Shown here piece by piece: positions 3,592-33,890 of a stretch of DNA of 64,000 nt. Where the stretch lies: IMG/VR virus record IMGVR_UViG_3300008120_000033; one strand, given 5' to 3'. The notes under the pieces were generated by a model. The model had not been told where the DNA came from. It saw nothing but the letters and a program-made list of their open reading frames with translations, and did not search any database. The translations under genes were made by a program, and so were the position numbers. How positions within the stretch are numbered: position 1 is the stretch's first letter; each line of letters starts with the position of its first letter. Source of the stretch: an uncultured virus (IMG/VR IMGVR_UViG_3300008120_000033). Taxonomy: Duplodnaviria > Heunggongvirae > Uroviricota > Caudoviricetes.

Positions 3592-3601
3592 GTTCAATGC
3601 C

Positions 3602-5440: not shown

Positions 5441-5502
5441 AATCAATTCTTCCTGCACTCTTTCCGCCACGGCGAGCAATTTTGTGCGCTACTGTATGTT
5501 AT

Positions 5503-5755: not shown

Positions 5756-7843
5756 ATGGCGTGGAACTCAAGACAAAACAAGTCCCTTGATGGACCTCAG
5801 GCTAAGCAGCTCGGCTACGGGTTGCCTATTTCAAGCAATCCATCGTTCGTTGGCAAGTCCTATAGGGACTCGTGGGACATTGAGCGCGCATACCGCGAGG
5901 GCATGTCCAAAATTACGTGGGTTAATCGCTGTATTGACGCTATTTCCGGGAACCAGGCGAGACTTCCAATAATTCTCCGCAAAGACAACTCCAATATGGG
6001 TGAGATTGTTGTTGGGCGCGAAGCAAACAGGTCCAATCTTTTGGAGATTCTTAACAATCGTGCCAACCTTGGGGAGAACTCGTTTATCTTCCGTTACCGG
6101 CTTTCGGCTCAGTTGCTTCTCGGTACTCGCGGTGTTTTTATCGAGAAAATCCGTGGTCGAGACGGCGGAATAATTGCTCTGAACCTTCTTCCACCGCAAT
6201 CAACTGCGCCAATTCCAGACCCCAAGACTTTCGTCAAGGGCTACGAAGTGATGATGCCTTATGGTGAGAAGAAATTCCTAAAACCAGAAGATGTCTGCTG
6301 GATTAGGCGACCACACCCACTCGACCCATACTTGTCCCTGACCCCGCTGGAAGCAGCCGGTGTTGCGATAGAAATTGAAAACCTTGCCAAGCTTTATAAC
6401 CGCAACTACCTCCTTAATGACGGTAGACCAGGCGGACTCCTTGTTGTTCGTGGAGAAATCGACGAAGACGACAAGGAAGAGTTGAAGTCTAGATTTCGTG
6501 GGAACCTCGCGAAGACTGGCCACACAACGGTAATTGCGGCAGATGACGGAGTTGATTACGTCGACACCTCGGCCTCCCCAAGAGATGCCGCATATATTCA
6601 GATGCGTCAGGTCACCAAGGAGGAAATCCTTTCTGCGTTTGGTGTTCCCGAGTCGGTCATCGGAAATGCTGCTGGAAGAACATTTAGTAACGCAGCAGAG
6701 GAAATTCGCGTTTTCTGGATGGAAACAATGCTTCCTCACCTAGAGCCAATTGCTCGCGCGCTTGATGAACTGGATGATAAGTACTACGTCGACTTCGACA
6801 CTTCGGAAGTCCCCATCCTTATGCTTTACAAGCAAGAGCGAGACAGATACCTCCTCCAGGAGTTCCAGGGCGGCCTGATTTCGGCAAACGAGTACAGAAC
6901 TGGCTCGTCACGCAAGGAAGTTGAAGCCGACCTTGCTGACTCACTATTAGCAAACCCGAACCTCATTCCGATTGCCAACACCAAGAAGAAGATGGAGGAG
7001 AACGCAGCACAGGTCCCCGGCGCACCTGGAATGCCTGGAATGCCTGGAATGCCTGGAATGCCACCAATGCCGGGTGCCCCAATGCCTCCTGGGGCACCAG
7101 TACCCCTTGACCCAAACACAATGCAGGGAGCGATGGCTGAAGCAGCTGGTGCGGGCGAGTTGGCCCAAACAACCGTTCCGGCCGAGGCCGCACCACCAGT
7201 AACTCCGCCGCCCCCAGTACCCGGAATGACGATGGCTGGCGCAGACGCTTCTCTAGTTGAAACAAAGACTGAAGAAGATGAAATAGAAGAAAAAAATGAC
7301 TCTTACTTCGAAGACAAGTCGGAGATGGCTATCGAAAGATGGGCCGAAATTCTTTCAAGAAGCATTGAGCGCGTCATAGAAAGACAGCAAAGGGTCGTTC
7401 TTGAGAAGGTGACTGGAATGAAGGCCAGAAAGGCCCTATCTGCTGGAACCCTTGAGGTGGACGCAGTTCTAGCTATCGATACTTGGGATAGACAGATGGA
7501 AGAGGACATTAAGCCAATTCTTTCTGCGATTATTCGCGACTCTCACGATGCTAGAAAAGAATTTGGCGAAGCTAACGGAATCAAAGTAAAGAGCCTGCCA
7601 AAACTTGACACGGTAAAGACCGTTGACTCTCAGGTTGGTGTAATTAAGTCACTCAACAGGGAGAACGTCAATGAAATACAGCGCCTCTACATTGACAGCC
7701 TTAATCTCATTGACGGAGATAGTAGAGCGTCGATGATTCGTGAGGGAATTGTCGACATGTACACCAACTTTTTTGCCAAAGAACAGGCTGAAATTGCTAT
7801 GGATGTTGCCAGAAGTACCTGGAATTACGCCCAAACTGTTTAA
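5756..7843 (+). CDS. Portal protein (HK97 family) with Pro-rich linker and C-terminal extension
   Basis: WVNRCIDAIS, HPLDPYLSLTPL, NDGRPGGLL, EEILSAFGVPES, ISANEYR. Confidence 0.9.
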   Translation: MAWNSRQNKSLDGPQAKQLGYGLPISSNPSFVGKSYRDSWDIERAYREGMSKITWVNRCIDAISGNQARLPIILRKDNSNMGEIVVGREANRSNLLEILNNRANLGENSFIFRYRLSAQLLLGTRGVFIEKIRGRDGGIIALNLLPPQSTAPIPDPKTFVKGYEVMMPYGEKKFLKPEDVCWIRRPHPLDPYLSLTPLEAAGVAIEIENLAKLYNRNYLLNDGRPGGLLVVRGEIDEDDKEELKSRFRGNLAKTGHTTVIAADDGVDYVDTSASPRDAAYIQMRQVTKEEILSAFGVPESVIGNAAGRTFSNAAEEIRVFWMETMLPHLEPIARALDELDDKYYVDFDTSEVPILMLYKQERDRYLLQEFQGGLISANEYRTGSSRKEVEADLADSLLANPNLIPIANTKKKMEENAAQVPGAPGMPGMPGMPGMPPMPGAPMPPGAPVPLDPNTMQGAMAEAAGAGELAQTTVPAEAAPPVTPPPPVPGMTMAGADASLVETKTEEDEIEEKNDSYFEDKSEMAIERWAEILSRSIERVIERQQRVVLEKVTGMKARKALSAGTLEVDAVLAIDTWDRQMEEDIKPILSAIIRDSHDARKEFGEANGIKVKSLPKLDTVKTVDSQVGVIKSLNRENVNEIQRLYIDSLNLIDGDSRASMIREGIVDMYTNFFAKEQAEIAMDVARSTWNYAQTV
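7025..7060 (+). repeat. (CCTGGAATG)x4 tandem repeat encoding PGM repeats in portal
   Basis: Four exact 9-bp units. Confidence 0.9.
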
Positions 7844-7946: not shown

Positions 7947-10900
7947 ATGCCAGGTGAGGTTTTTGAATACAAGACAACTGCGCTAGGCACTGCCGAGGGC
8001 AAGGCCGACTCAGTTAACCTCAATGAGGCGCAGGGTATTGTCGAGTGTTTCGTTGCTGGCATCGGAAACAAGGACTCAGTTGGTGACATCGTTGCCACTG
8101 GTGCTTTTACAAAGAGCTTGATGCGTAGAAAACCACGTGTTGTATGGGGCCATAACTGGAATGACCCGATTGGTAAAGTTCTAGAGATTTACGAAGTTCC
8201 TCCCACCGATAATCGCTTGCCAATGAAGATGAAAATGGCTGGAATTGGTGGACTTTTTGCTCGCGTCCAGTTCAATCTTCAGTCCGAGAAGGGCCGGGAA
8301 GCCTTTGCAAATGTTGCCTTTTTTGGCGAGGAGCAAGAGTGGTCAATTGGTTACAAGACGCTACGCGCTCAGTATGACCAGAAATCTCAGGCAAATGTCA
8401 TCTTTGAGCTTGAACTATACGAAGTCTCCCCCGTTCTGCATGGTGCAAACCAGCTAACTGGAACAATCTCAGTTAAGTCAGATGAAAAGGGCGGAATGAT
8501 GACCCCATCACCGATGATGATGATGGAAGAAGACGAGACAGACGAAATCCAAAAGCAGCTATCGATGGTTATCGGTTCAAAGGTCATGATTGATGACGTT
8601 GCTGATGACATGATTACCTTCTCGCGTAGGGAAGACGAAGGAAAAGTGGGCAAGTACAAGTGCCACTACAGCCGTGGACCTGCCGGATTTATGTTTGGCC
8701 CACCACAGCGTGTTCCTATGGCTCCAAAGCCAATGCCAATGATGCCAATGGCTTCACCTGGAATGCCGTCAGTCCCAGAAAGAATTATGCGTCCTTCGCA
8801 GATGCCGGGAATCCCTGTTGCAATCAAGCCAGGCGAGGCTGGGATGCAAATAGTTCCGCTTCCGCCAGTTGATTACGAGGACTCAGGTAAAAAGCCTCGT
8901 CCGCAGTTCGACCCGAACAATATCGACTCAGAAGAGGCTGACCTCCGCGATTCTCTTCTTAAGATAGTTAAGCGCTATGGCAAGTTTAATGAAGACGCTG
9001 ATGGCGTTTGGGCTGGGTACACATCGGCCGCAGAAAATGATGTCAAGAACATCGGCGTCAAGTGCGCCAACTGCGTATTTTTCAAGGGTGGGAACTCTTG
9101 CCAGATAATCGACCTCGACATTGAATCTGAAGGTAAGTGCAGATTTGCAGTCATTCCTAAGGGTGTAGTCAAGGGTGATGTTGTCATCAAGAAGTCTTAC
9201 GAATACCAGACAGAAGCAAATGAAGAGGATTACCTTGAGGACCTTGAGGTTAAGTATCCAGGCGAACTAGCCGTAGCTGCTCTAAGAGGAATTATTGGGC
9301 GTAAGCGCAAGAAGAATCGTAAATACAAGAGCCTCGCTGACTTCGGTCGCGAGGGCGATGACATGAATGGCGCATACTGCATTCCGGTAATGCCGCAGTA
9401 TGCGTTCCGTGTAAAGCAGGCTCTCGACCCAATTTTTGATTACCACTATGCCGACGCTTATGTGGATACGGATGGAATTGTTATCACTTCGGGGGCCAGC
9501 TTTGAGCTCATCGACGCAATTGATACCGCGCTTGATAATTTAAAAAAAAAATCCTTAAATGATGGTGGCATAGAAGAAAAGGCTATTGGCTACCGCCTAG
9601 GCAGGGCAATTGGTAGCCGAATGGTTGACCGACCAAATCTTGGTGGCGGTCGCTCTCGTGGAAGATTCTTCACCAGCTCTGGTGCTCAGGACTTTGACCC
9701 ATTCACCGCAAGAGACGTTGACCTTGATGGAATTGTTGGTGAGGGCCTATTCATGCGAGGCACACCCCTTGCGCAGGCCGACCCAACCCCAGACGGTCCT
9801 GGCTCAATACGCAACCCAAAGCCATCCCCCGAGCAGCTCAAGAAGCCAGGCGCACCTGGCGCGCCAGTATCAAAGCCAGCAACAGGACTTTCGAGTGGAA
9901 AGCTCTATGAGGTTCCACGTGTGGATGACCCAGATGTTGCGTCGTTTGACAAAATGGCCATGGCTGAAGAGCAGAGAGAACAGCTACAGGGTGTTCTTGA
10001 TGGGGCAAGTGACCCAGACCAAATAAAGAGACTGCGTAAGGCAATCAACGAACTCGACAAATACATGAATCGTGTCGAGAAGATGTCAGAGCGCGAAATG
10101 CGTCAGCAGGATGCTGGAGACGTAACCAAACTCTCAAGCGGTTACCAGCGCTTCCTCAGCACCCCAGACAATAAGCGTAGCGATTTTGACAAGGTTAAGT
10201 ATCAGGGCCCACTCAACAAGTTCAAAGAAGGTGAAAGACTTTCCTCTGGAAAGGTTCTTGACTCCGACAATGTAACCCCAGAAGAGCAAAAGCAAATTCT
10301 GGATGATGTTTATGCCAAGATGACAGAGCAGATTATTACTGCTCTTGAAGAAATTGCCAAGAATCCAGGCAATGCGAGATGGGAAATCCCGTGGCGCCAA
10401 CTGGAAATCATGGCGAGAAACGCAACTGGCCAGAAGCGTGTTTATCAGGGAACAAACCAGCTGATGCTGACACTAATCAGCAGCGCTAGGGGCTACAAGA
10501 CGAATCGCTGGGCCGGAGCTGGTCAGTGGAAAAAGATTGGCGGCAAAATAAGCAAGGAGGCCATGGAAAAGCGTGGCGTCCAGATTCTTGCTCCGAACAA
10601 AACAGAGACAGCCATACTCGATAGGGATGGAAATGTAGTTGGCAGCTATCGCGGCTTCCACACAACCACAGTCTGGAACGTCGCAGACGTTGAGGGTCTC
10701 CCACCAGAAATGTATGAATTAGATGATGTTCTTCAGTTGTCACCAGAGCAGAGACTCCAGGACCTGGAAGATGTAATCAAAGAAATTGCTCCAGCATGGA
10801 AGGAAGTCAAGGGCAATAGGGCTTTCTATAGCCCAATGGCTGACGAAATCACAATGCCGCAGTTTGAGCAGTTCAAGGACCCATTGAACTTCTACTCAAC

Positions 10901-13900
10901 GCTATTCCACGAGACCGTTCACTGGACATCACACCCATCAAGAATGAACAGAAAACTTGGCAAACAGTTTGGTGATGCTGATTATGCATTCGAAGAACTT
11001 ATTGCCGAGATTGGTTCGGCATTTGCTCTTGGCGCAATGGGTGTTGAAGCTCCAGTGAGAAAAGACCACGCACCGTACTTGGCTTCATGGCTCCAGGCTC
11101 TACGTAGCCGTCCAGAGGCATTGAAAGACGCAATTACTCAAGCTCAGCAGGCTGTTGACTTCCTGATGAATCGTTCGGCAACCATGCGCAAGCGTGCTGG
11201 TATTCCGGATGGCGAGCGCAAGGGCAAGGACGAGGCAACCGCTGAAGTCCCAATGATTGTTGGATTTGAGGATTCACCAAAGATTCCGACAATTGGTGGC
11301 GTGCGTGGAACATTTGGCGACGAAGACATTGAGGACATAGTTCCTCCAGCTCCAGCAGAAAAGCCAAAGAGAACGAGGAAGGGCTCAAAGGCCTCCGGCG
11401 AGGCTTCAACCGAGGCCCTGTCTAGCGGCGCAATGATGAGCAACCTCAATACCGTTGATGAAGACATTATCGGCGGCGGCTATATCCGTCGTGAGGGTCG
11501 CGACGGGTTAGCTAAGGACGTATCTGGACGCTTGTCCAGTGGTGCATCGCGTGGTTCAGTCCAGCATAGGAGCGGTGACGAAGCTCGTGCCGTAAAACGC
11601 TCACCAGGAACGGCACATTTCGGAAGCCTATATGGATTCTCTTATGAGCCAACAGAGCAGCAGAAAGACATCATCGATACTGGTCTTGCTTTAATGTTTG
11701 GCGAGCAAAAAGGCATCATGACTGTTTCTGCTGGTGCCGGCTCAGGGAAAACAACAACCCTCAAGGCATTGATGGCCGCAGCTGAACGCGAGTTTGATAT
11801 CACGCGATTCATTAATCGACCGGAAGCCCTAAAGGAAAAACTGGATTTCATCTCCGAGAAGTACAGCACCGATGATGACAAGTTTGACCTTTCCTCAATG
11901 TCGGAAGAGGACAGGGATACAAAACTTTCTGAACTTAGAGACAAATTTAAGTCACCAACGGCGTACTACGTTGTTTTCAACAAGAAGAATGAAGAAGAGG
12001 CTGCTGCTGAATTCAGCGACAACACTGGTGTATCAACACTAAACAGGCTGTCTTGGTGGTCATTGTTGCTCGGTCAGGGTGACGAAAAGTATGGCAAGAA
12101 GTTCCGCGACAAGGTAAAAATTTCCACCCAGGATAGAGGGACATTTGCCAGAAGAGACAAAGACGGAAAACTTCAAACAATCAAGTTCACAAAAGTTGAT
12201 GGAACAGAGGGTGAGACGGTTGGGTACGACCCGGGCTGGAGAGACCTTGGTTATTTGAAGCTATCTGACTCAAACGGCTGGATTAAAGCACTCAAGCTCA
12301 CCGATAGAGAAGAGTTCTCTGCTGGCAAGGGTGCCGGAATGCCAACCCCAATAGCGGGAGTAAATCTAACAGTTAGAGACTATGCAGACATTCTTAACAA
12401 GGCACTCAAGGCATTCGCAAACAGTGCTGACGAGAAAATCGGCCCACAGCACTTCAAGAGAGCAGACATCAACAAGGGCAGAGCATCTGATTCAATTGTT
12501 GACACTGAATGGCCTTCAATTCCAGACCAGTGGTTGAAAGACGCCAATGATGGTTGGAACATGGTTACCGACCCGGACAGCATCGTCCTTCCAGACCAAG
12601 GGCAGACAGACAAACTCTGGGCGATGACCGACCCAGACCTGAGAAGCGACCCTGGCTTGATTGGTCATGCCACAGGAAAAGACCTAGAGGCAAACGTTCA
12701 GGTTCCAAAGGAAACAAAAGTTGGGGACATTCTCCCTGACGGACGTGTGGTTATCTCTGTAAAGACAGGCCAGAAAGGCAAGAACTTCCAGGCCACGGTC
12801 GCGCGGAGATACGCAACTAAGGATAACCCGCTGTCAATGTTCATGATTGACGAAGCTCAAGATATGAACCCAGTAATGGAGCAGGTGTTAAATAAGAACA
12901 GAGACAATCTCTCTATTCTACTTGTTGGCGACAAGAGGCAAGCAGTTTATGCGTTCCGTGGTGCTAAAGACATTCTTTCCTCACTAAACGGCGACTATGA
13001 CCTCCCATTGAATGAGTCGTTCCGTTATGGACCAACTGTTGCTTGGTTGGCAAACCTGATTCAGTCACAGGGCAATATTGACGATTCTGAATTGGGAATA
13101 GAAGACAGATTCCACCACGTTGCCGGTTTGGCTGTTGATGTAATCAACAACGACTTCGACATGGATGGCCTTTCCCCAGAAAGAGCCCGCGAAGCCTTAG
13201 TAAAGATTGAGTCAAAGTACAAGAGCGACAGAATCAGAATTGCCCAAAAAGGCATTCGTGATGATTTCGATATGACAAGCATGACTGTTGACCAGAGAAG
13301 AGAAAAGCTCAAAGCAGCAGACAAGAAGTACAAGACAAAGCTTGCATCTTTGTCTGATGATGAAATTGTTTCAGGTATTGAAATCAACAAGGCTCTCTCC
13401 AAGGAGCTCCGAAAAGTAGAAGATAGTTACGTTGCTCTTGCCGATATGGACGAGGCAGCAAGAAGCAAGGAGCTTGCGTCACTAAAGGATGTTCTTTCAA
13501 AAGAAGCAGCTGGTGAGTTTGTTGCCGACATGAAGGACGCTGACGCAATCCTTACGCGCGATAATGCAACAATTATTTATGAAGCATTGCAGTTCATCCA
13601 AAACTTCCAGCCGAGATTCACCAGAAACGGACAGGAACTCCCTCCCGTTGTGATGATTCCAGCGACAAAACACAGAGAAATGAAAGCATTCTTTGAGCAC
13701 TTGTCGTTCGTAATGGATACACCGGTAGATAAGCAGATAGAGCTGACAAAGAAGGGGTTGCGCCCGAAAGCGTCTTCATGGATTGGTGATGTTTGGGATG
13801 CTGGCGAAATAAAGCGCAGGGCTCAACAAGAGCAGTATGCACAGCTCAAGTCAATGTACAAGCTTGTTACTCGCGGCAATAAAAACCTCGGAATCCCACC

Positions 13901-16850
13901 ACGCAGGGCATGGGAATACCGAAACATGTTCGCTAATGGCGTAACGCCAGGAATCAAGGCGCCAGTCATTGTTCCAGAGAGAAAGATGCTCAATCTTTCC
14001 AAGCTCAAGGACGTAAATGTTGATGACCTAAAGACCATATCTGCACAGCGCGGAACGGGTTTCACCTCAACGTCAACAGCAAGTCGTGCCAGAAGATTTG
14101 AGGTAATTCCAGACACAACCGGTAAAGGAAAGAGCAAGGTTCAGTGGCACCTCCAGCTCGCGGATGTGAACGGAAAGCGTGAGGGCGAATGGACGGGGGC
14201 CATTGAGTTATTTGACTGGGGCATTGATAGCGGTGGTGAATACACCGATACCAAGACTGGAAAAGTCGTAAAAGCGCCACAGGGTGTCTACTTCAGAGAC
14301 ATGATGAGAATCCTAGAGGATAGTGATTACTACGGTGGAAAAGTCCAATTCAAGAAGAACGGTCTCCGAAACAAGGAAGGTTCTGGAAAAGAGTTTGGAG
14401 ACACTGTTGTTATCAAGGGCGATACCGACGAAGAAACTGCTTTTATTCTCAACGACATAGTAAGCCGCATGAGGACTTCAGCAAAAACGCCAAATGCTGA
14501 CGTTGAAATAACAACCGCGCAGCTATCCAAGGGTAGAGAGTGGGATAGGGTCCGCGTTGCTTCTGACTTCCGTAATCCTCCAGACCTCGACATAGACCCA
14601 GAAACTGGAAAACCAGTTGAGAGTCGCTCCAGAAGAGAGGAACTCAACATTGTTTATGTTGCTCTAACTAGAGCAAAGAGAGCAATCGACCCGGGCAAGG
14701 CAATATACGACCTTTACCTCTCTGACACTGTGTCGGCAAGACAAAGGGAGGCAATCGACAAGGCTATTGAGGACGGCAGAATGCCCGACTATCTCAATAA
14801 GCCGGAAGGCCTGTTTGACCCATACTCTGGGGAAATAAATGCACCAACACCAACAATCGAAGACGACGACGATGAGCCTGGCGACTACGAAGTTGGTGGT
14901 GGCGATGATGGCAAGTCAATTGACGACATAATCAAAGAAAAAGAAGAGGAAAAAGAAGACGAAGACGCCAGCATCGACGGAATCGAAGACATCGGTGACG
15001 AGGACGCGTCCAATAGTCCAGACATGGACCAGTTCGTTGACTTCCTTTCCTCTGGTCGCTCAGGTCGCGGACGCAGAAACCGCAGACTAAATCGTTCCCG
15101 TCAAACCCCATGGTCCGACGAAGACAGGCAAAGATTTGCTGACCGTGACAGGCTGAGGGCAAATCGTCGCCCTGGCAAGCGGAATGATGGTCCGTCGCCA
15201 GAAGAGTTCTTCTCTAGCGGTCGTACCGATGTGGAGCTAGAAGGAAGATTTGGTCGCAGACTGCGCCAGGGCGGAGCTCAGCGCGCACCAAGGAATGCAA
15301 GACCAAGCACACAAGGAATTGCAGGTCTGAGGTTGTCTGGAAACCCAGAAACAAACTCTAAAGCTAGACGCGAACTCGATTATTCAATGCGCGTATGGGA
15401 CGGATTCAAGAGAACCGGCATAGCCCTTGACGTGAATAGTGATGATTCTGGAACTGATGCAAGACAGAGACAGATTCGCGAAGCGATGAACAACGTTTCA
15501 CAGAGAATGGCAGACAGACCACAAATTACTGTTGGTAGCGTTTCGTCAAACAACCCTAACCAGAACCCAACAGCCTCAACATGGATGCTCTCCACGGAAA
15601 AACTGAAGGATACGATAAGAATTCCAACGGAATACTCTGTCCAGACCGACCCAGGAACCGGAAGAAAAGACATTACTTGGACCCAATCGCGTCCACTAAG
15701 CAATGATGAGCTGGCATCCCTGCTGAACCTTGACAAGCCAAATGCGGCAAAACTTTCGGACCCCGATGCCGGAATTAACCACGATGCGGTACGCATGCTT
15801 GTTGCCGAACTTGGAAAACAGCCAGAGTTTGCTGGATGGAGGCTTTTTGCCCCTGTCACAAGAGCAGACGAAGACTTTGCTGAAATGAACGTAATGGAAC
15901 GATTTGCGGAAAATCTTGGCAGGGCCAACATGCGTGACCGATTCATAATCGAAACATTTGGCAAGGACGCATTCCCACACTGGTTTGACGAGGAAGAAAA
16001 TAACCCAATCTCCCCAGAGGAATACGATTCACTTGGTGAGGTGAGCAGGGTTTCACAATTCCGTGCTAGCGGCCGATTCGATAAAGATAGCGCCACCAGG
16101 GGTGACTCACCAGTTGAGGAAATGCTCATGGAGGAGTCAATTGATGAGGCAGAACTTCCTGACATACAGGAGCCAGATGTTTCTGCGGAGGAGCTAAGGG
16201 CTGACAAGACTGCGCGCAAGGACTTTGAACTTGACGCTCTTCTCAAGTATCTGGGTATCCCAGAAAAGGGATGGCAACAGAGAATGCGCGAAAGACTGCA
16301 GCAGTCGTTCGGCATGGATGATGTTGGTCTTGGCGCACAGAGTGACTGGAAGAAAAACGGAGTTCCAATCGCGTATATCAACCAGATGATAAAGGCTGGT
16401 CTCATTCCAGACGCCAGTTCTGTTTGGCGAGATGGAGACTCCGGTTCAAAACTGGATTCAGAACTCAGCAACGCGAAACATGCTGTTTATGAGGCACTTA
16501 ATGAATTTATTGACAAGAGTTTTCCGAATTCGCCGCAAAACAGCACAAAAACGCGCAACTACATAACAAACAGCACAGATATGGCCCTATATCTGTCGGA
16601 GTCAGCAAAGAGAAAAGGTTCCGTATTCAGCCCAAGAAAGGGCGATGAACCAAGATTCAGCAGCAACGAGCTACAACAGATTGTCAACAGATTCAATGAA
16701 GCATTTGGAACGAATCACACCATTGAAGACATCTTCAGTAGAGAGCAGCTAGAGACAGCACGCAGAAGAATTGAAGAGGATGGCGAGACACTCTCTGGAA
16801 AAAAACGAGAGAGAAGAAAGGTTAAGCCAGACAATTTCGCCAACGATTAA
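7947..16850 (+). CDS. 2967-aa polyvalent protein: HK97-type prohead protease + Cys4 (HiPIP-like) module + ArdC-like ssDNA-binding/zincin + UvrD-like SF1 helicase + unknown modules
   Basis: DSVGDIVATGAF, WGHNWNDPIG, WSIGY, LYEVSPVLHGAN (protease); CANC..C..C at 9063-9140; W.IPW..Y.G.N..L, HETVHWT (10908), YAFEELIAE; AGAGSGKTT (11730), DEAQD (12849), VGDKRQAVYAFRG, SFRYG, KGREW, YVALTRAK. Confidence 0.88.
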   Translation: MPGEVFEYKTTALGTAEGKADSVNLNEAQGIVECFVAGIGNKDSVGDIVATGAFTKSLMRRKPRVVWGHNWNDPIGKVLEIYEVPPTDNRLPMKMKMAGIGGLFARVQFNLQSEKGREAFANVAFFGEEQEWSIGYKTLRAQYDQKSQANVIFELELYEVSPVLHGANQLTGTISVKSDEKGGMMTPSPMMMMEEDETDEIQKQLSMVIGSKVMIDDVADDMITFSRREDEGKVGKYKCHYSRGPAGFMFGPPQRVPMAPKPMPMMPMASPGMPSVPERIMRPSQMPGIPVAIKPGEAGMQIVPLPPVDYEDSGKKPRPQFDPNNIDSEEADLRDSLLKIVKRYGKFNEDADGVWAGYTSAAENDVKNIGVKCANCVFFKGGNSCQIIDLDIESEGKCRFAVIPKGVVKGDVVIKKSYEYQTEANEEDYLEDLEVKYPGELAVAALRGIIGRKRKKNRKYKSLADFGREGDDMNGAYCIPVMPQYAFRVKQALDPIFDYHYADAYVDTDGIVITSGASFELIDAIDTALDNLKKKSLNDGGIEEKAIGYRLGRAIGSRMVDRPNLGGGRSRGRFFTSSGAQDFDPFTARDVDLDGIVGEGLFMRGTPLAQADPTPDGPGSIRNPKPSPEQLKKPGAPGAPVSKPATGLSSGKLYEVPRVDDPDVASFDKMAMAEEQREQLQGVLDGASDPDQIKRLRKAINELDKYMNRVEKMSEREMRQQDAGDVTKLSSGYQRFLSTPDNKRSDFDKVKYQGPLNKFKEGERLSSGKVLDSDNVTPEEQKQILDDVYAKMTEQIITALEEIAKNPGNARWEIPWRQLEIMARNATGQKRVYQGTNQLMLTLISSARGYKTNRWAGAGQWKKIGGKISKEAMEKRGVQILAPNKTETAILDRDGNVVGSYRGFHTTTVWNVADVEGLPPEMYELDDVLQLSPEQRLQDLEDVIKEIAPAWKEVKGNRAFYSPMADEITMPQFEQFKDPLNFYSTLFHETVHWTSHPSRMNRKLGKQFGDADYAFEELIAEIGSAFALGAMGVEAPVRKDHAPYLASWLQALRSRPEALKDAITQAQQAVDFLMNRSATMRKRAGIPDGERKGKDEATAEVPMIVGFEDSPKIPTIGGVRGTFGDEDIEDIVPPAPAEKPKRTRKGSKASGEASTEALSSGAMMSNLNTVDEDIIGGGYIRREGRDGLAKDVSGRLSSGASRGSVQHRSGDEARAVKRSPGTAHFGSLYGFSYEPTEQQKDIIDTGLALMFGEQKGIMTVSAGAGSGKTTTLKALMAAAEREFDITRFINRPEALKEKLDFISEKYSTDDDKFDLSSMSEEDRDTKLSELRDKFKSPTAYYVVFNKKNEEEAAAEFSDNTGVSTLNRLSWWSLLLGQGDEKYGKKFRDKVKISTQDRGTFARRDKDGKLQTIKFTKVDGTEGETVGYDPGWRDLGYLKLSDSNGWIKALKLTDREEFSAGKGAGMPTPIAGVNLTVRDYADILNKALKAFANSADEKIGPQHFKRADINKGRASDSIVDTEWPSIPDQWLKDANDGWNMVTDPDSIVLPDQGQTDKLWAMTDPDLRSDPGLIGHATGKDLEANVQVPKETKVGDILPDGRVVISVKTGQKGKNFQATVARRYATKDNPLSMFMIDEAQDMNPVMEQVLNKNRDNLSILLVGDKRQAVYAFRGAKDILSSLNGDYDLPLNESFRYGPTVAWLANLIQSQGNIDDSELGIEDRFHHVAGLAVDVINNDFDMDGLSPERAREALVKIESKYKSDRIRIAQKGIRDDFDMTSMTVDQRREKLKAADKKYKTKLASLSDDEIVSGIEINKALSKELRKVEDSYVALADMDEAARSKELASLKDVLSKEAAGEFVADMKDADAILTRDNATIIYEALQFIQNFQPRFTRNGQELPPVVMIPATKHREMKAFFEHLSFVMDTPVDKQIELTKKGLRPKASSWIGDVWDAGEIKRRAQQEQYAQLKSMYKLVTRGNKNLGIPPRRAWEYRNMFANGVTPGIKAPVIVPERKMLNLSKLKDVNVDDLKTISAQRGTGFTSTSTASRARRFEVIPDTTGKGKSKVQWHLQLADVNGKREGEWTGAIELFDWGIDSGGEYTDTKTGKVVKAPQGVYFRDMMRILEDSDYYGGKVQFKKNGLRNKEGSGKEFGDTVVIKGDTDEETAFILNDIVSRMRTSAKTPNADVEITTAQLSKGREWDRVRVASDFRNPPDLDIDPETGKPVESRSRREELNIVYVALTRAKRAIDPGKAIYDLYLSDTVSARQREAIDKAIEDGRMPDYLNKPEGLFDPYSGEINAPTPTIEDDDDEPGDYEVGGGDDGKSIDDIIKEKEEEKEDEDASIDGIEDIGDEDASNSPDMDQFVDFLSSGRSGRGRRNRRLNRSRQTPWSDEDRQRFADRDRLRANRRPGKRNDGPSPEEFFSSGRTDVELEGRFGRRLRQGGAQRAPRNARPSTQGIAGLRLSGNPETNSKARRELDYSMRVWDGFKRTGIALDVNSDDSGTDARQRQIREAMNNVSQRMADRPQITVGSVSSNNPNQNPTASTWMLSTEKLKDTIRIPTEYSVQTDPGTGRKDITWTQSRPLSNDELASLLNLDKPNAAKLSDPDAGINHDAVRMLVAELGKQPEFAGWRLFAPVTRADEDFAEMNVMERFAENLGRANMRDRFIIETFGKDAFPHWFDEEENNPISPEEYDSLGEVSRVSQFRASGRFDKDSATRGDSPVEEMLMEESIDEAELPDIQEPDVSAEELRADKTARKDFELDALLKYLGIPEKGWQQRMRERLQQSFGMDDVGLGAQSDWKKNGVPIAYINQMIKAGLIPDASSVWRDGDSGSKLDSELSNAKHAVYEALNEFIDKSFPNSPQNSTKTRNYITNSTDMALYLSESAKRKGSVFSPRKGDEPRFSSNELQQIVNRFNEAFGTNHTIEDIFSREQLETARRRIEEDGETLSGKKRERRKVKPDNFAND
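9539..9551 (+). other. Candidate slippery site T-TTA-AAA-AAA-AAA (A10)
   Basis: X-XXY-YYZ heptamer in phase with the ORF; longest A-run noticed in window; both shifted frames stop within a few codons. Confidence 0.5.
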
Positions 16851-16967
16851 CAGGCAAGCAAATTAGCAAACGTTACTAATTAGCGCGCAAGGTTCTGATA
16901 CGTTATAATTTAAGCAAATTGATTGGTTAATGTCCCTATGGCATTTCCCTGCATTTACGGGAGTTCT

Positions 16968-18559: not shown

Positions 18560-21500
18560 ATGTCGGGTGAACCGGTAAAGCACAGGGTAATAACGTCTGG
18601 ACGTCTAGTATCTCCAGTTGCCTGCTGTAGGGACTTCGATGCTAGAGCGCTTCGTTTCAAGCAATCAATCAACGGAAGCGTCTACTCAGGCAGGCTTCAA
18701 GCAGATATAGCCGTAAAGGCGCTTGGTTGGGGCATCTCTCGCAAGCAAGACGAGGGAAACACTGACAATAAAAAGCGTGAATTCACCGGGGAATCAATGC
18801 CCGGTGTTGAAAAAAACGCATACGGGTATAGGTGGAAACCAGAAGCCAGATGGGAACCGGGCTCAAAGCTTGTTCTATCGCCAACAATTGAGAGCATTCG
18901 CGGAATGGATATCGAGCCTAATTTTGGCTGGATTCCAGAAAAGGAACGCGAAGTTGATTCGTTTGACAAGCTGCTGAATAAGCTGCGAAATAAACCACAC
19001 ATAAAAATATCTAAGTTTGATGTAAACCCTAAGACTGACGAAGTTGACACATCTTCTGAAAAAATTGTCGACCCATTTGCAATGTCAACAGGCATGACAA
19101 TGGAGGAACGCAGAAGAAGGCTCAACAAGGGCAAAAACGTAGAAGAAAAATCATTAGGACCCAATCTTGGTGCGCGAGTTCCTGGCGGTTCATTGCTAGC
19201 AAGGGCAGCTGCAGCAGTTGGAATACTTAGAGATGAAAATAATAAGTTTAGGTGTCCTCCAGGAACGCCAGCAGCTAACCAGTTTACGGACGCCATGGGC
19301 TCAAACTGCTTTGGGTTCAGTGCTAGTAGATTCGCAAGATTTGCTGCTCGCCAGGCCGCAGAACTCTCCAACCAAGGAGAAATGCAGGGACTTAGAAACA
19401 GTGCACGAAATGTACTTGACTTTGTTTACAACGGAAGATGGTTTCGTGACTTAGCTGATGCTGACCCAGCAAGAATTGGTCGCAGTCCATGGTATGACGC
19501 AGCAACTGGCGAAAGAATAGAAACACCTGACTGGCGTGACGTTGATGGCCCAGAAAATCTCCGCGTAACAACTAATGGGATGATTAACGCGCAAGATGAA
19601 ATTGCGCGAGCTGATGCTGAAGTTCTCAGTCTACTGGATGACCTTGGTGTCGACATAAGTGATGAGGCGAGAGCCACGAATGAAGACCTTGGTCAAGCAT
19701 TTGACACACTGCGACAGATGGCTAATAATGGCGACCCACGCGGATGGGATGTAAACCTTGTCAACGCAAACGGAGTAGACCAGCCAAGACTGACACCACA
19801 ACAAGTCGAGCAGTTTGTCACAGCCCGCCTACAGGCCGTTCAGGGATGGACTTCACTCTCAAAAGAAGAACAAGACCTCATGGTCAAGGCTGATACTGCA
19901 AGATATTACGAAACCGAAAGAGCATTCCTTGAGTCCCTGCTAGTTCAGTTCAAGAGAAACCCATCTGCAGCAAAGTTTCTTGGAACAATCATGTACGACT
20001 CGGACTCGAACCACGAGGCCGGAACATCACTAATGCGCGATGCTGCTCAAATTATCGACATGACTGACCCTGTTACTGGGAAAACAAGAAAAGTCAAAAT
20101 ACCCGGGGAAATGCGTGGGGTAATCGACTTCAACATGGACATGATTATGAGCAACCAGGAAACCATGCTTCCAAACATGGGTGCTGGCCAGCGCCTGTCA
20201 ATAGCTGCCATTGGCGGAAGAACAGACGCCGAATCTCAGATGGCTCTTTCACATTTTATGCTAAACGCTGACCTTGCGGCTCGCCACATGGCTGGACTCG
20301 TAGATGGTCCAAAATCATTCACGAGACACATAGGGATACACGAATTTGCCCACTTGGTCCAGGCTCAGGGATTCATGGAGGAGATTGACCGCAGAGCAAA
20401 AGCCGGAATGCTTGAGGTTCCGCAGTTCTCTAAGCGCGGCGACTATCTAGGGCAGAAAAAGATAAATAGCCTTTACGACTTAAGCGCTGGCGACATCATG
20501 AACATGATGACACAAACAGCTGACGGGATAAACCTTAAAGAACTTGGTGATGTGATGAGCCGCCTAGAGGGTGTTGCTCAGTTCTCTGGCGCATATCCAA
20601 GAGAATATGAAAAGGGAAGCGAAATATGGGCGCTCGAAGCCCTTGCTGAACTTTATGCGCTGAGGGAACAAAAACTTATAAGCGGCGATGACGTCGACTC
20701 GGTTCTGGAGTTCATGGATGACATCATGGCAAAGAGAGCTGAAACTTCGGCAGCAATCGCAAGCGCAACATATGACCTGGATGAGGTTGATTCTCCAGAC
20801 ATTGATTCACCAACAGCAGACGTTCTTCCTGGAATAACGCCAGAAGAACTAGACGCAATGGCAGAAGAAGCGCTAGTCCGTAGGGTTGCCGACAGGAGAG
20901 AAACTCTAAAAGCTTTCAGAAGTGACTATTCGGGACTCACTCAGGAGGAGATGTTTGATGTTGCTACAGAAATAGCGACAGATTACACTATCGCTAAAGA
21001 AAGTCTGGATGAAATAGAAAAGTCGGAAATCCCATCTGGCTTAACACCGGAAGAAACAGATGCTGCAACAAGAGCCAGACAAGAGCTTCTTGATATAGCC
21101 ATAGAAGAGGCTCAATTCCATGAGAAGAAGTACGACGATGCACGTCGTGAATGGAAAAAGAAGTATGGAATTGGTGCTCGTTCGGAAAACGCAAGATTTG
21201 ACGCAGAAGTAGGGTCACTAAGGGAGTCTCGCGGCCTACTTAGTCCATCGGAAGCTGCTAAAAATGCAAGAGCAAGACAGCTTGATGCTATTTCTGAAGA
21301 CATAACACAAATCGATGATAAAAAAGCCATCAGAAAAATGGCCGACACCCAAGTTCTGATGAAGGCAAATTCTGATGATGTCGACAAATCAGTAGAACTA
21401 GCTGAAGAATTCGACACCATGAAGAATGCCATGATTGAAAAACTTAGGGCTGGTGGAGATAAACGCAGCAGGTCGAGAATTAGTAAAGAAATCGATGAAA

Positions 21501-24500
21501 AAATTGAAGCCCTAAACAGCCCTAAACCAAAACCAACTAGAAAATTCAAATCGAAAGCGGATGCTGATTCATTTGTTAAGTCTCGTAGGGCGAGTCAATC
21601 AAGACGACTTACGCCACGTCAACGTGAAGCCATTCGCCAGATTGGTACTGGTGAAGACGTGGATATCTCTAATGTTTTGGACCCACAGAAACAAGTTTCC
21701 GCTGGTCGTGCAATAAATCGTCGCAACGCTCGCCTTGCAAGGCTTGGTCTTGAGGTAGATGAAAATTCATCTTCTGAAGCCCCCCTTGATAGGCAAGTGC
21801 AGAATGTTTTGATTCCAACAATGGAGGCGATAGATGCCACCTCCATAACAGAGCCTTTCGAGATTGAGGCAATCGTAGAAGTTGAGTCTGGTAAGGTTTC
21901 CGGCCGCTCTGTTGGAAAAGATGTTCAGATAGACAGCCTCGTTACGGGCAGGCTTATGCCCAAGGGCCGTAGACCAACGAAGCTGACAAGACAGCAAGAA
22001 TCTGATGCCCCCGAAGGCAAGAAGAAGAAGCGCGTTGTAATTTCTCTGAAGGAGGGAGACAAGGGAATATTCTCGTCTCCTGGAGAAGATGGGGAGAGCA
22101 GATTCATTCTACCTCCCGGCTCTTTGCGTGTTGTGTCTCGTGGTGACGATGGAACAATCTACATGGAGGTTTCATCTCAGAAGAATGCAGTTGAGGCTGC
22201 CGAGTCATTGAGGGATTCTCTTTCTAACGGCACTGATGACGCAATTTGGCGAAAAGGTGCATCCAATAGGGTTGGCAAGGTTGTCAATGAATATGTGACT
22301 GCACGCCGGGAAAGCAGAGATATAGATTCCCCTAGAAACGACAGCGATAAACAGATAGCAGAGACAAACTCATCCATCAATGAACAGGTAGTTGATGCTG
22401 GCTCAAGCTTTGGTGAAGGTATAGATGATGTTGACCTTCAGGGCGCAAGCGAATCATTGTCATCCGGACGTTCAATATATGGTCCAAAACAAACAAGAGC
22501 ACAGAGAACCGAGTCTCGACGCAGTAAAATCTCCAGCAACGCTAAGGAAATAAGAAACATACTTTCAGGCAAAGGCTCAAAAGAATTCCCAGAACTATCA
22601 AAGGAAAATATTGACCCACGTGTTGCCGAATTAATTATGAACCTTCCAGATGAAGAACTTCATTCACTAATCGAGGAAACCGCATACAGAATGCATTCTG
22701 GCCTAGATAGGCGCGCCCATGTGAGAATGAGGGAATCAGAAGTTGATGAAATGCTCATAACTGGAACGGTTCGTTCACCACTCGCATCAAGCTCTGACGA
22801 TTCTCCAGTTGCTTCAAGACGCATAGAAAGAATACTGAGACGCAACTCATCTGGCACAAGAGAAGACGGCTTCAGAAGAGCCATGCAAAGCGAATCCCTT
22901 AGCAGTGGGGCAGTCAAAAAGGGCATCGGTGAGCGCCTAAAGGGCAGGGCGATGAATCAGATAGCTGAACGAATGGGCCTCGATGATGAAGAGAAAGAAG
23001 TCATGGAGCTTGTCGTTGATACGGCCGCAGCGATGCGTTTTGGTCCTCAAGCTGCACTCACGAAACTTGGAATGGAACTAGCCAGAAGAGGAAGCAGAGA
23101 CCTAGCAGAGTTTGTTGTTGAAAAACTTAAGGAAGACGACAGAATCAACGATGAACAAGCAAAGATGATTCTTAAGAGAATGAATAGAGTTGCCCCAGAG
23201 GGGCTGCCCGAACCGCTCAAGGATGCCGCAGTTTCTGCAGCAAGGGGCGCGCGCAGGATGGTTGATACACCAGAAAACAGGGAAAGAATAGCTACAGCGC
23301 GTGAATCTGCTGGACGCAGAGCAAGGCGCTTACGAGATGCAAGCGCAGAACGAGTGCGCGAAATGCGAGACAGAATAACTGGTGTTGAGGCAATCAACGA
23401 CGCGGGCGAAACTGGGCCTCCCATCGGGCTACCGCCAGTGCCGGTTCTTCGCGGCGAACCACGAGTGACCCTCTCTAGCGGAAGGGTGGAGAGAACACTT
23501 AAGCCTGGCTCGATATCCCCACAAACTTCCAAAATAAAGAGCAGTCGTGCTTCAATCTCTCTCGGGGAAAATTGGCGTGACCAAATAGAAGTTTACGAGA
23601 TAGGCGGAAAGCGTGTCGCCTTCGGTGTTCCCAATGAACAGTCATGGGAATCAGATATATCTGATGTTGAAGTTTTACCAATTAACCCATTTGTTATTTC
23701 TGGGCTTGACGAGACATCTGACGAGGGCCGGGAGTTGGCCATTAAGTGGACACTTGCCGGAATTGGACTTAATGAAGAAGGTAATGATTCAAAAACAGAA
23801 GCAAGTTCAATACTTTATGCAGCAACGCGCGGTGACACTGACGCACAAAAGAGACTTGATGACCTTGCCGAGGCCGGACAGAAGACAGTTGACGCAAGTC
23901 GCAAAAACATAGCCCAATTACGACAGGAAACAATCGATAGGGAAGCTGCCGCAAGAGAGAAGACCCTAAGTGAACTTAGAAGGGCATTGCCAGACGCTTC
24001 AGAAGAAGAAATACAAAGAAGAGCACGCCCCTCTCGGTCCAACGGCTTTAGTGGCCTGTCAGTAGACGACCTGTATCTCGTCCACGAAACTACATATGAA
24101 CCACAGTACGACAGTGATGGTAATTTAGTTATAAGACCAACAGGCGACTACCCAATGCTTGATGAAAATGGTCAACCGCTACTCGATGACAATGGTAGAC
24201 CGTGGGATACATATAGGGGAACAATACATTTTTCTATTAACCACAGGGTTTCCGGACATCAGCAAAGAGAGACCCCAGAAGCAAGCAATGTAATAATGAT
24301 TCCGTTAAAGGACGTTATTGCGGCCAACCCTGGAGCACTCGACAACCTTTACGGAGTTGATACATATTTAACGCCACCACCGGGGGAGCCACTCAAACTT
24401 CCTGCGTCTGCAGTTAGGACACTCAAACTAGAAAAGGGTGAAACCGACCCATGGGGCAAGGTTCATACTGAGCTTGAAAGCATGGGAATGAGTCCTGATG

Positions 24501-24772
24501 TCAGGATGTATGGAGGCACAGACTCTGTTGGCCTCGATGCCGACCAGAGAATAAGTGGAATAGCTGCCCAGCTTGACGTTGAGAATAAAATGCACTCACA
24601 CTCAGATAATGCACACTTTGAAAAAACAAGAAAACATGATGGTATGTCATTCCCTGTTACTCCTGGAATATTTGCTAACTTAAGTCGAAATGCTCTTCTG
24701 CGTTTAATGCATCAAGATAGATGGTCTGGGGCAAACAACTCACTATCTGAAACAACAAGAAGTGTTGTTTAG
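18560..24772 (+). CDS. 2070-aa polyvalent protein: zincin (HEFAH), degenerate ADP-ribosyltransferase-like module, C-terminal domain paralogous to 41140 protein
   Basis: GIHEFAHLVQ (20339)...EALAELY; VISLKEGDKGIF..GESRFILPPGSLRVV; three LSSG motifs. Confidence 0.72.
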   Translation: MSGEPVKHRVITSGRLVSPVACCRDFDARALRFKQSINGSVYSGRLQADIAVKALGWGISRKQDEGNTDNKKREFTGESMPGVEKNAYGYRWKPEARWEPGSKLVLSPTIESIRGMDIEPNFGWIPEKEREVDSFDKLLNKLRNKPHIKISKFDVNPKTDEVDTSSEKIVDPFAMSTGMTMEERRRRLNKGKNVEEKSLGPNLGARVPGGSLLARAAAAVGILRDENNKFRCPPGTPAANQFTDAMGSNCFGFSASRFARFAARQAAELSNQGEMQGLRNSARNVLDFVYNGRWFRDLADADPARIGRSPWYDAATGERIETPDWRDVDGPENLRVTTNGMINAQDEIARADAEVLSLLDDLGVDISDEARATNEDLGQAFDTLRQMANNGDPRGWDVNLVNANGVDQPRLTPQQVEQFVTARLQAVQGWTSLSKEEQDLMVKADTARYYETERAFLESLLVQFKRNPSAAKFLGTIMYDSDSNHEAGTSLMRDAAQIIDMTDPVTGKTRKVKIPGEMRGVIDFNMDMIMSNQETMLPNMGAGQRLSIAAIGGRTDAESQMALSHFMLNADLAARHMAGLVDGPKSFTRHIGIHEFAHLVQAQGFMEEIDRRAKAGMLEVPQFSKRGDYLGQKKINSLYDLSAGDIMNMMTQTADGINLKELGDVMSRLEGVAQFSGAYPREYEKGSEIWALEALAELYALREQKLISGDDVDSVLEFMDDIMAKRAETSAAIASATYDLDEVDSPDIDSPTADVLPGITPEELDAMAEEALVRRVADRRETLKAFRSDYSGLTQEEMFDVATEIATDYTIAKESLDEIEKSEIPSGLTPEETDAATRARQELLDIAIEEAQFHEKKYDDARREWKKKYGIGARSENARFDAEVGSLRESRGLLSPSEAAKNARARQLDAISEDITQIDDKKAIRKMADTQVLMKANSDDVDKSVELAEEFDTMKNAMIEKLRAGGDKRSRSRISKEIDEKIEALNSPKPKPTRKFKSKADADSFVKSRRASQSRRLTPRQREAIRQIGTGEDVDISNVLDPQKQVSAGRAINRRNARLARLGLEVDENSSSEAPLDRQVQNVLIPTMEAIDATSITEPFEIEAIVEVESGKVSGRSVGKDVQIDSLVTGRLMPKGRRPTKLTRQQESDAPEGKKKKRVVISLKEGDKGIFSSPGEDGESRFILPPGSLRVVSRGDDGTIYMEVSSQKNAVEAAESLRDSLSNGTDDAIWRKGASNRVGKVVNEYVTARRESRDIDSPRNDSDKQIAETNSSINEQVVDAGSSFGEGIDDVDLQGASESLSSGRSIYGPKQTRAQRTESRRSKISSNAKEIRNILSGKGSKEFPELSKENIDPRVAELIMNLPDEELHSLIEETAYRMHSGLDRRAHVRMRESEVDEMLITGTVRSPLASSSDDSPVASRRIERILRRNSSGTREDGFRRAMQSESLSSGAVKKGIGERLKGRAMNQIAERMGLDDEEKEVMELVVDTAAAMRFGPQAALTKLGMELARRGSRDLAEFVVEKLKEDDRINDEQAKMILKRMNRVAPEGLPEPLKDAAVSAARGARRMVDTPENRERIATARESAGRRARRLRDASAERVREMRDRITGVEAINDAGETGPPIGLPPVPVLRGEPRVTLSSGRVERTLKPGSISPQTSKIKSSRASISLGENWRDQIEVYEIGGKRVAFGVPNEQSWESDISDVEVLPINPFVISGLDETSDEGRELAIKWTLAGIGLNEEGNDSKTEASSILYAATRGDTDAQKRLDDLAEAGQKTVDASRKNIAQLRQETIDREAAAREKTLSELRRALPDASEEEIQRRARPSRSNGFSGLSVDDLYLVHETTYEPQYDSDGNLVIRPTGDYPMLDENGQPLLDDNGRPWDTYRGTIHFSINHRVSGHQQRETPEASNVIMIPLKDVIAANPGALDNLYGVDTYLTPPPGEPLKLPASAVRTLKLEKGETDPWGKVHTELESMGMSPDVRMYGGTDSVGLDADQRISGIAAQLDVENKMHSHSDNAHFEKTRKHDGMSFPVTPGIFANLSRNALLRLMHQDRWSGANNSLSETTRSVV

Positions 24773-33790: not shown

Positions 33791-33809
33791 ATGATTGAAT
33801 ACTACCTTG

Positions 33810-33890
33810 TGGGCTAGGCGGGATTTGAACCCGCATCCCTTTCGGGAGAGGATTTTAAGTCCTCCGTGTATGCCATTCCACCACTAGCCC
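33810..33890 (-). tRNA. tRNA-Leu(TAA)
   Basis: GGGCTAG acceptor, CT-TAA-AA loop, long variable arm; CCA not encoded. Confidence 0.93.

Follow-up and report, generated by a model that had tools for sequence, protein, structure and literature searches.

One phage gene joins a prohead protease to exchangeable cargo: a candidate self-processed polyprotein with a recurrent junction peptide and an A run at the core/cargo boundary

In an uncultured tailed phage (Caudoviricetes; IMG/VR record IMGVR_UViG_3300008120_000033), from which a stretch of 64,000 nucleotides (the window) was analyzed, a single gene joins a prohead protease to several DNA-processing modules. The gene (7947..16850, + strand) is one ATG-to-stop open reading frame (ORF) of 2967 codons without an internal stop, and encodes a precursor of 330.8 kDa. 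An earlier note on this DNA had described the same uninterrupted ORF as a fusion of an HK97-type maturation protease with an ArdC-like single-stranded DNA (ssDNA)-binding domain carrying an HETVH zincin and with a complete UvrD-like helicase, all of which our analysis bears out, and had proposed that fusion to the protease packages the enzymes into the head. Two features absent from that note, a short peptide that recurs between the modules and a run of ten A's (A10) at the end of the protease-bearing core, change the mechanism: the product looks like a polyprotein that is cut between its modules and made in a short and a long form. We propose a chain of slippage, packaging, cleavage, and delivery, to which as a whole we assign a probability of roughly 0.6; the polyprotein reading taken by itself we rate higher, and delivery to the host lower. 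The parts of the gene, with positions in the window and in amino acids (aa) of the product, are as follows.

7947..16850 (+): whole cargo-fusion ORF, 2967 aa
7947..9551 (+): constant core, aa 1-535 (parts of it match 129-131 of 134 large homologs; AlphaFold model)
8028..8468 (+): S78/HK97-type prohead serine protease domain, aa 28-174 (Pfam, fold match, invariant residues)
aa 195-258: small alpha/beta domain in the core (AlphaFold model)
aa 411-536: helical/beta domain of the core (AlphaFold model)
9542..9551 (+): A10 run (AAT TTA AAA AAA AAA TCC) at the core/cargo boundary
9552..9887 (+): putatively disordered linker, aa 536-647, between the core and junction peptide 1 (predicted local distance difference test, pLDDT, below 50 over most of aa 537-648)
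9888..9899 (+): junction peptide 1, LSSG, aa 648-651
10131..10142 (+): junction peptide 2, LSSG, aa 729-732
10239..10250 (+): junction peptide 3, LSSG, aa 765-768, 22 residues N-terminal of ArdC-N
10248..11426 (+): ArdC cassette, aa 768-1160, 43.7 kDa, ArdC-N ssDNA-binding domain and HETVH zincin (Pfam, 6sna alignment)
11418..11429 (+): junction peptide 4, LSSG, aa 1158-1161
11532..11543 (+): junction peptide 5, LSSG, aa 1196-1199
11541..15053 (+): superfamily 1 (SF1) UvrD-like helicase cassette, aa 1199-2369, 130.6 kDa, large inserts between motifs (Pfam, motifs)
15045..15056 (+): junction peptide 6, LSSG, aa 2367-2370
15054..15218 (+): basic peptide of 55 aa, isoelectric point 11.9, 6.6 kDa (accompanies the C-terminal module in relatives)
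15210..15221 (+): junction peptide 7, FSSG, aa 2422-2425
15219..16847 (+): C-terminal module, aa 2425-2967 (543 aa), 61.3 kDa (pLDDT 81.8; in 105 of 110 homologs cut at the junctions)

The gene, its protease core, and its cargo

The fusion ORF is a genuine gene. The identical 2967-aa protein was recorded on 10 contigs from three sources, an identical ORF lies in a complete virus genome of 151,107 bp with direct terminal repeats that matches the window, and at least 94% of sampled words of the ORF DNA were present in 19 DNA runs, mostly from lake or freshwater metagenomes (the five best-matching runs carry the label fungus metagenome, and this DNA may derive from them); the sole RNA run examined contained 5% of these words. 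Contigs of three runs from three studies tiled the ORF with a handful of substitutions and zero indels. In particular, contig X17 (7947-11785) holds the protease, ArdC, and the start of the helicase, and contig X12 (11567-16850) continues from the helicase through the end of the ORF. Because of the identical protein on 10 contigs, the 19 DNA runs of many studies, and the indel-free bridging of every domain boundary by independent contigs, and with an N-terminal core common to 294 relatives of 1631-5193 aa, an assembly chimera (the risk that the earlier note had named) or a decaying fusion of neighboring genes is refuted.

The protease was recognized by Pfam Peptidase_S78 (PF04586), which matched aa 28-174 with 40.6 bits in the protein search and 45.3 bits in the genome search (cut-off 21); PHROGs called the fusion ORF as head maturation protease, anti-restriction protein, and DNA helicase. 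Residues H69, S133, and H165 were invariant in a 39-sequence alignment. By sequence, the protease domain alone found no match in the PDB. The best solved match of its model was T4 gp21 (5jbl_A: Z 8.2, root-mean-square deviation 3.7, 124 residues aligned), followed by herpesvirus proteases (varicella-zoster virus protease, Z 6.7), and the top Foldseek hit was the Epstein-Barr virus protease, with a probability of 0.97 but an E value of only 0.033. Judged from the model, the domain adopts the assemblin/gp21 fold, and its catalytic His and Ser residues are conserved. Prohead proteases that share this fold act inside procapsids. In the complete 151-kb genome, the single S78 match was the fusion ORF and no ClpP was found, which indicates that the ORF holds the maturation protease of the phage and not a spare copy; a profile search for S77, the family of T4 gp21, gave no signal in any control genome and carries no weight. 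The AlphaFold model of aa 1-648 (mean pLDDT 58.8) had four parts, and the core also contains a poorly modeled Met/Pro-rich, Cys-containing stretch. No solved relative of aa 181-764 was found by sequence search of solved structures.

The gene stands in a head-morphogenesis block with the order terminase, portal, protease ORF, eight ORFs, capsid protein (Pfam, PHROGs, and NCBIfam), and a position between the portal and capsid genes fits a protease that would act in the prohead. The eight intervening ORFs encode 540, 2070, 505, 170, 217, 680, 245, and 212 aa, none with a family. The landmarks of this block are as follows.

4127-5479 (-): large terminase (family match)
5756-7843 (+): portal protein (family match)
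18560..24772 (+): 2070-aa neighbor, candidate further substrate (three LSSG at aa 1300, 1447, and 1638; conserved HExxH)
31029-32390 (+): HK97-fold major capsid protein with an N-terminal delta-like region (family match)

Behind the core of ~535 aa follow ~2430 aa of exchangeable cargo. In the ArdC cassette, Pfam ArdcN (aa 787-873, 53.1 bits) and MPTase-PolyVal (aa 953-1062, 131 bits) both exceeded their cut-offs, and aa 787-1084 aligned end to end with residues 8-296 of ArdC from plasmid R388 (PDB 6sna, E 3.6e-33); HETVH at aa 988 and EELIAE at 1016, which supplies the third zinc ligand, are both intact. By these sequence matches the module is a full-length ArdC homolog, and it corresponds to the stretch 10251-11417 that the earlier note had marked out. 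ArdC is an anti-restriction ssDNA-binding zincin of conjugative plasmids, and the phage module would likewise protect incoming DNA against restriction.

The helicase cassette gave UvrD-helicase and AAA_19 matches at aa 1251-1282 and 1621-1674 above the cut-offs (PF00580, 34.1 bits; PF13245, 39.8 bits) and a UvrD_C match at aa 2179-2246 just below its cut-off (23.0 bits, cut-off 25.6). All six SF1 motifs (Walker A, Walker B, III, IV, V, and VI) are intact: GAGSGKT at 1263, DEAQD at 1635, GDKRQAVYAFRGA at 1661, SFRYG at 1691, KGREWD at 2195, and VALTRA at 2238. F-box DNA helicase 1 was also matched weakly (E 1.7e-7), and the NCBIfam equivalogs of UvrD, Rep, RecB, and AddA scored 15-32 bits against cut-offs of 543-1697, which gives no orthology to any of these. 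From its sequence, the module is a divergent SF1 member with large inserts. P1 DarB is a precedent for a packaged helicase in the portion of PMC9024508 that treats it. The C-terminal module is well modeled, and sequence search of solved structures returned nothing below E 0.18, the protein atlas no usable match, and Foldseek of its model against PDB and BFVD no match at E <= 0.001; the best VIA-align Z was 4.8, with only a weak helix-turn-helix-like resemblance at model residues 420-524. Because it is present in 105 of the 110 homologs cut at the junctions, this module may be the most important uncharacterized part of the polyprotein.

Fusions of a prohead protease with ArdC and a UvrD-like helicase are not confined to this phage. 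With aa 1-420 as a query, 294 large relatives (1631-5193 aa) were found at E <= 0.001; among the matches listed (120 of 294), nearly all combine S78, ArdC-N, zincin, and helicase domains, and some carry no recognizable cargo domain. Further cargo in the relatives includes sigma-70 region 4, pentapeptide repeats, KTSC, DEAD, WYL, and a second helicase. Among 134 large homologs, the protease domain was matched in 130 (median identity 87%), aa 181-420 in 129, and aa 421-648 in 131; the corresponding counts were 107 for ArdC, 96 for the helicase, and 95 for the C-terminal module. Cutting 110 homologs at the junction motif produced 1239 fragments, of which those of at least 50 aa formed 99 similarity clusters in 78 distinct module orders. 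The core was present in all 110 and always first; the C-terminal module, which the basic peptide accompanies across these proteins, occurred in 105, compared with 88 for ArdC and 84 for the helicase. Thus, a constant front is followed by a variable rear.

The junction peptide and the A run

The tetrapeptide [LF]SSG occurs seven times in the polyprotein, compared with 0.11 expected from its composition, and all seven (starting at aa 648, 729, 765, 1158, 1196, 2367, and 2422) lie between modules, where they bracket ArdC (768-1160), the helicase (1199-2369), the 55-aa basic peptide, and the 543-aa C-terminal module. The codons of LSSG vary between sites, which indicates selection on the peptide and not a DNA repeat. 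At least three sites were present in 110 of 121 large homologs (up to 20, with ~0.2 expected), and LSSG was the most frequent 4-mer over the 121 (971 occurrences), ahead of any catalytic-site word. L, F, or M came directly before SSG in 976 of the 1085 distinct contexts, with R, K, G, or S preceding and R, K, or A following, giving the consensus [RKGS]-L-S-S-G-[RKA]-[RK]. In 12 proteins, only one of 162 sites fell inside a Pfam-defined domain span (37.8 expected at random). Moreover, the ArdC cassette began 7-32 residues past a site in 10 of 11 ArdC-bearing proteins, wherever it was placed in the chain; the exception was P0118, a protein of the [LF]ASR clade, in which the nearest site lies 245 residues upstream of ArdC.

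Divergent clades use LASG, LRSG, or FASRG, with the second position altered or with F-A-S-R, so that L/F and S remain fixed. Assemblin-fold proteases cut at sites of the form (V/L/I)-X-A↓S, which the junction motif, with L/F and a small Ser fixed and the position between them variable, resembles. In a tree of the cores, which took in 102 of 121 rows (the FASR group was among the 19 left out by the anchor filter), the LASG forms were nested among LSSG forms, and the comparison with the motif variant was uninformative. The C termini of two homologs (P0076 and P0079) read ...GLSSGRNRKKG, that is, a junction peptide and only a 6-residue basic tail.

In six-frame ORFs of at least 100 aa from the complete 151-kb genome, the motif occurs 16 times, including seven in the polyprotein, three in the 2070-aa neighbor two genes downstream, and two in a polymerase-like protein. 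The 2070-aa neighbor has no family match, but its HEFAH near aa 598 is kept in a 1440-aa ortholog of a distant clade, and its LSSG at aa 1300 aligns with YASSG in the [LF]ASR clade. This neighbor may be a second processed head-internal protein.

The A10 run is the only homopolymer run (A or T) of at least 8 in the 64-kb window, and it encodes the sole KKK of the polyprotein, in which Lys codons are otherwise AAG in 146 cases and AAA in 72. One additional A leads to ...KKKILK-stop and one fewer to ...KKNP-stop. In relatives, short gene calls of 534-548 aa end exactly at the run (...NLKKK). As candidates for stand-alone proteases without cargo these calls were dropped; in the one with readable DNA, the cargo continues in another frame. 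In a first set of 67 related loci, of which 55 were mapped to the junction, A10 or A11 was in frame in 53 of the 55. These 53 represent 16 distinct contexts, in every one of which both shifted frames stop 1-4 codons past the run. A wider set comprised 144 loci, many fetched twice; 25 escaped the anchor and 7 ended early, leaving 112 examinable, and a run of at least 8 A's was found in 106 of these (61 A10, 35 A11, 9 A9, and 1 A8) and none in 6. The codon preceding KKK varied in the wider set (TTA, CTA, ATA, AGA, ACA, or GTA), yet always ended in A. Conservation of the run across diverged relatives extends to the nucleotides themselves.

In two contigs, an A9 run accompanied by a frame break put the cargo out of frame. 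One of them (L031/L097) has a core otherwise identical to the window, with a 536-aa protease call and out-of-frame cargo that lacks a start codon, and its A9 is either an error in the homopolymer or true variation of run length within the population. The other comes from a different phage (L072, A9); its cargo frame, which overlaps the run and comprises at least 1116 aa and six LSSG, is homologous to the post-run sequence of the window. Neither ATG nor GTG occurs among the first 140 codons of this frame; thus, the L072 cargo would be makeable only by a slip. These sequences indicate that both arrangements occur, with the long form by default or the short form by default, and at A10 a core-only protein is probably made in addition to the long form. 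In Thermus dnaX, products of two lengths arise by slippage at an A run. Slippage at A runs with two-length products is covered in portions of a review (PMC5009743) and of a report on tssM (PMC4256274), and poly-A ribosome sliding in part of PMC4363877. The phage carries 10 tRNA genes, among them tRNA-Lys(UUU) at 57016-57090 (+) and tRNA-Leu(UAA) at 33809-33890 (-), which decode the AAA and TTA codons of the slippery run.

Proposed mechanism and alternatives

We proposed that RNA polymerase or the ribosome would slip at A10 in part of the events, as the conserved sequence suggests, giving a ~59-kDa core-only protein (ending in KKKILK or KKNP) beside the 331-kDa fusion; such dosing would resemble Gag/Gag-Pol, but with the long form as the unslipped product. 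The core would then co-assemble in the procapsid and pull the covalently joined cargo inside, by analogy with T4 capsid-targeting sequences and with HK97 gp4, which enters proheads through its non-catalytic tail. As the motif statistics suggest, the S78 protease would cleave the [RKGS]-L-S-S-G-[RKA] junctions and free the 44-kDa ArdC-like zincin, the 131-kDa helicase, the basic 6.6-kDa peptide, the 61-kDa module, and small spacers. Finally, by analogy with P1 Dar, T4 internal proteins (IP) and Alt, the N4 virion RNA polymerase (vRNAP), and the ejection proteins of phiKZ and SPN3US, the freed enzymes may exit the head along with the DNA, which they would protect or process in the newly infected host prior to expression of any phage gene. 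With respect to the earlier proposal of packaging by fusion, the sole S78 match, the portal-capsid position, and the constant core with variable cargo fit it well; its encapsidation and delivery parts we still infer.

Several observations weigh against this chain. Packaging, cleavage, slippage, and delivery are each read from sequence and analogy, whereas the open frame, its domains, the junction peptides with their placement, the A run with its conservation, the constant core beside variable cargo, and the head-operon setting are direct observations. The protease reached 48.9 bits with the NCBIfam equivalog TIGR01543 (proheadase_HK97), compared with a cut-off of 59; from its sequence it is a member of the S78 superfamily, but it is not called as an HK97 proheadase equivalog. 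LSSG stands twice in the 1210-aa polymerase-like protein and does not occur in the major capsid protein, an expected substrate of the same protease. Alignment of the capsid protein with that of the variant clade showed no shared co-located junction-like peptide but a weak F-L-[EA]-S-[AT], and the neighboring head genes of the [LF]ASR (FASRG) clade contained 0 clade motifs, which indicates that trans-substrates there do not follow the motif. In the first set of 67 loci, ten fused loci, the FASRG clade among them, lack any A run of at least 8 within their first 1000 codons, the six run-less loci of the wider set all being among these ten, and one fused locus of the first set has its A10 ~28 codons further downstream; run-less fused loci indicate that slippage is not obligatory for the family. 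The A9 of an assembly could be a homopolymer error. In addition, folding of the RNA that follows the run was no better than that of shuffled sequences (z -1.33) and thus gives no sign of a frameshift stimulator, which favors RNA polymerase slippage or poly-A sliding over a classic stimulated frameshift.

The capsid peptide itself, F-L-[EA]-S-[AT]-E-F at aa ~106-112, is kept in this phage and in the FASRG clade and lies near the HK97-type trimming place; as a speculation, it would fit an L-x-S cleavage rule.

Among the alternatives, an uncut product comes among the first, although we consider it unlikely: the polyprotein would be packaged whole, with LSSG as flexible linkers or docking motifs, and ejected as a 331-kDa multi-enzyme. 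N4 vRNAP and DarB, which parts of PMC5512222 and PMC9024508 describe as packaged very large single proteins, would be precedents for it, and it would be in line with a cleavage step that is read from the motif and with a capsid protein that lacks that motif. However, an L/F- and S-fixed, charge-flanked peptide at nearly every module boundary in more than 100 protease-fused proteins has the signature of a processing site, and relatives that end in LSSG and a 6-residue basic tail make little sense for a linker. To a similarly small degree we allow that the A run has no programmed role, being an inherited Lys-rich gene end or a DNA phase-variation hot spot, and that one protein form matters. The ten run-less fused loci and the lack of downstream RNA structure agree with this, and A9 in the otherwise window-identical L031 fits replication slippage or assembly error. 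Nevertheless, pure AAA codons are kept in a gene that prefers AAG by 2:1, the codon before the run changes its amino acid yet keeps its final A, the shifted frames close within 1-4 codons in all contexts, and L072 needs a slip for its cargo.

Less probable again is a cytoplasmic polyprotein, whose modules would be freed by the protease domain inside the host cell at a late stage of infection, without any of them being packaged. It would accord with an encapsidation that we infer, but the gene lies in the head operon between the portal and capsid genes and encodes the only prohead protease of the phage, and anti-restriction is needed at DNA entry, ahead of late gene expression. The improbable remainder is that the zincin of the ArdC module (MPTase), and not S78, cuts the junctions. 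Autoproteolysis by MPTase domains has been proposed for polyvalent proteins in the available part of PMC5512222, and the MPTase domain is present in 99 of 121 homologs; however, among the other 22, from which PF18818 is missing, 16 still carry 3-12 [LFM]SSG sites, which argues that the motif is independent of the zincin, and the constant companion of the motif is the S78 core. Thus, we preferred the reading of a polyprotein that is packaged by its core and cut by its S78 protease.

Genome setting and relation to known systems

Two WhiB-family genes were observed in the phage genome (one at 89008-89229 of the genome, mapped to 37906-38274 (+) of the window, the second copy at 27825-28016 of the genome), and the head genes are nearest to those of actinobacteriophages; these sequence features indicate that the host is likely an actinobacterium. 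The closest cultured relatives of the protease and the capsid protein are from Gordonia and Brevibacterium phages. The proteases Chidiebere gp34 (Gordonia phage, 452 aa) and Cantare gp13 (Brevibacterium phage, 417 aa) are likewise encoded in the head module, directly 5' of the capsid gene, and their protease domains are 36-41% identical over ~170-215 residues; however, the similarity is confined to aa 4-213 of the polyprotein, and neither carries cargo. Flanking the head module are genes for an Erf-like single-strand annealing protein with an exonuclease at 2145-3672 (-) and for a class II (B12-dependent) ribonucleotide reductase at 34053-35978 (-). The 540-aa protein directly after the polyprotein (16923-18545, +) has a very acidic center of long D/E runs, with Cys clusters in its middle and near its N terminus. 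It matched no family in Pfam, PHROGs, or NCBIfam and might act as a scaffold or a DNA mimic. A basic protein of 212 aa with two DUF3721 motifs (30224-30862, +) lies immediately 5' of the major capsid gene.

The polyprotein agrees with the definition of polyvalent proteins, in that several effector domains stand in one phage polypeptide in a portal-terminase packaging context. Such proteins were predicted to be packaged in capsids and delivered, according to the available part of that account (Iyer, Burroughs, Anand, de Souza, and Aravind 2017, PMC5512222). As in that account, ArdC-N, a zincin MPTase, and a helicase share one chain beside portal-terminase head genes. The assemblin-like peptidases described there occur in a limited set of polyvalent proteins and always at the C terminus, whereas here the peptidase is N-terminal, is the sole maturation protease, and forms the constant part; its full architecture lists aside, the account has neither a junction peptide nor a slip site.

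Parts of PMC9024508 report that P1 DarB and T4 IPIII are packaged via capsid-targeting sequences, the DarB signal being N-terminal and 30 aa long. In these systems, which include the gp21-processed T4 internal proteins and Alt, an N-terminal address brings proteins that counter restriction or modify the host into the prohead, where they are processed before they leave with the DNA, as we propose here; in contrast, the address in the polyprotein would be the covalently joined, protease-bearing core, which several enzymes share. Similarly, in phiKZ and SPN3US an assemblin-fold prohead protease cuts many head-internal ejection proteins at a short consensus motif before they are ejected, as described in portions of PMC10052503, PMC7411985, and PMC5694885, but their substrates are separate gene products with another motif, whereas the candidate sites here are in cis and read [LF]-x-S-[GR]. 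The likeness to retroviral Gag/Gag-Pol lies in a slippery homopolymer at a domain boundary that would set the ratio of short to long forms, the long form then being cut by a protease within the product; the differences are that this is a dsDNA phage and that the long form is unslipped in this genome, with the reverse in A9 relatives. Our literature searches, which did not cover the full architecture lists of Iyer et al., turned up neither a cargo polyprotein that starts with a prohead protease and is divided by junction peptides nor the A run. Thus, compared with known polyvalent proteins, the N-terminal sole maturation protease, the junction peptide, and the candidate slip site would be new, whereas cleavage of ejection proteins at a consensus was already known from the sources above.

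A broader proposal, which we put forward only tentatively, is that of plug-and-play delivery: any domain might be packaged, freed, and injected if it follows the core and has [LF]-x-S-[GR] peptides on both sides, with the slip setting the dose, and the near-universal 61-kDa module with the basic peptide might be an essential ejection or DNA-escort protein rather than an optional anti-defense enzyme. If the proposed chain is true, a widespread group of freshwater phages would solve capsid addressing, dosing, and release as separate enzymes with one gene, which would be the first dsDNA-phage counterpart of retroviral Gag-Pol logic. The prediction that polyvalent proteins are packaged and processed would then become directly testable through a candidate motif, a candidate protease (S133), and a candidate slip site. 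The junction peptide and the core could also serve to load foreign proteins into capsids. Taken together, the family would represent a catalog of the proteins that are worth injecting to phages, many of them without a recognizable fold.

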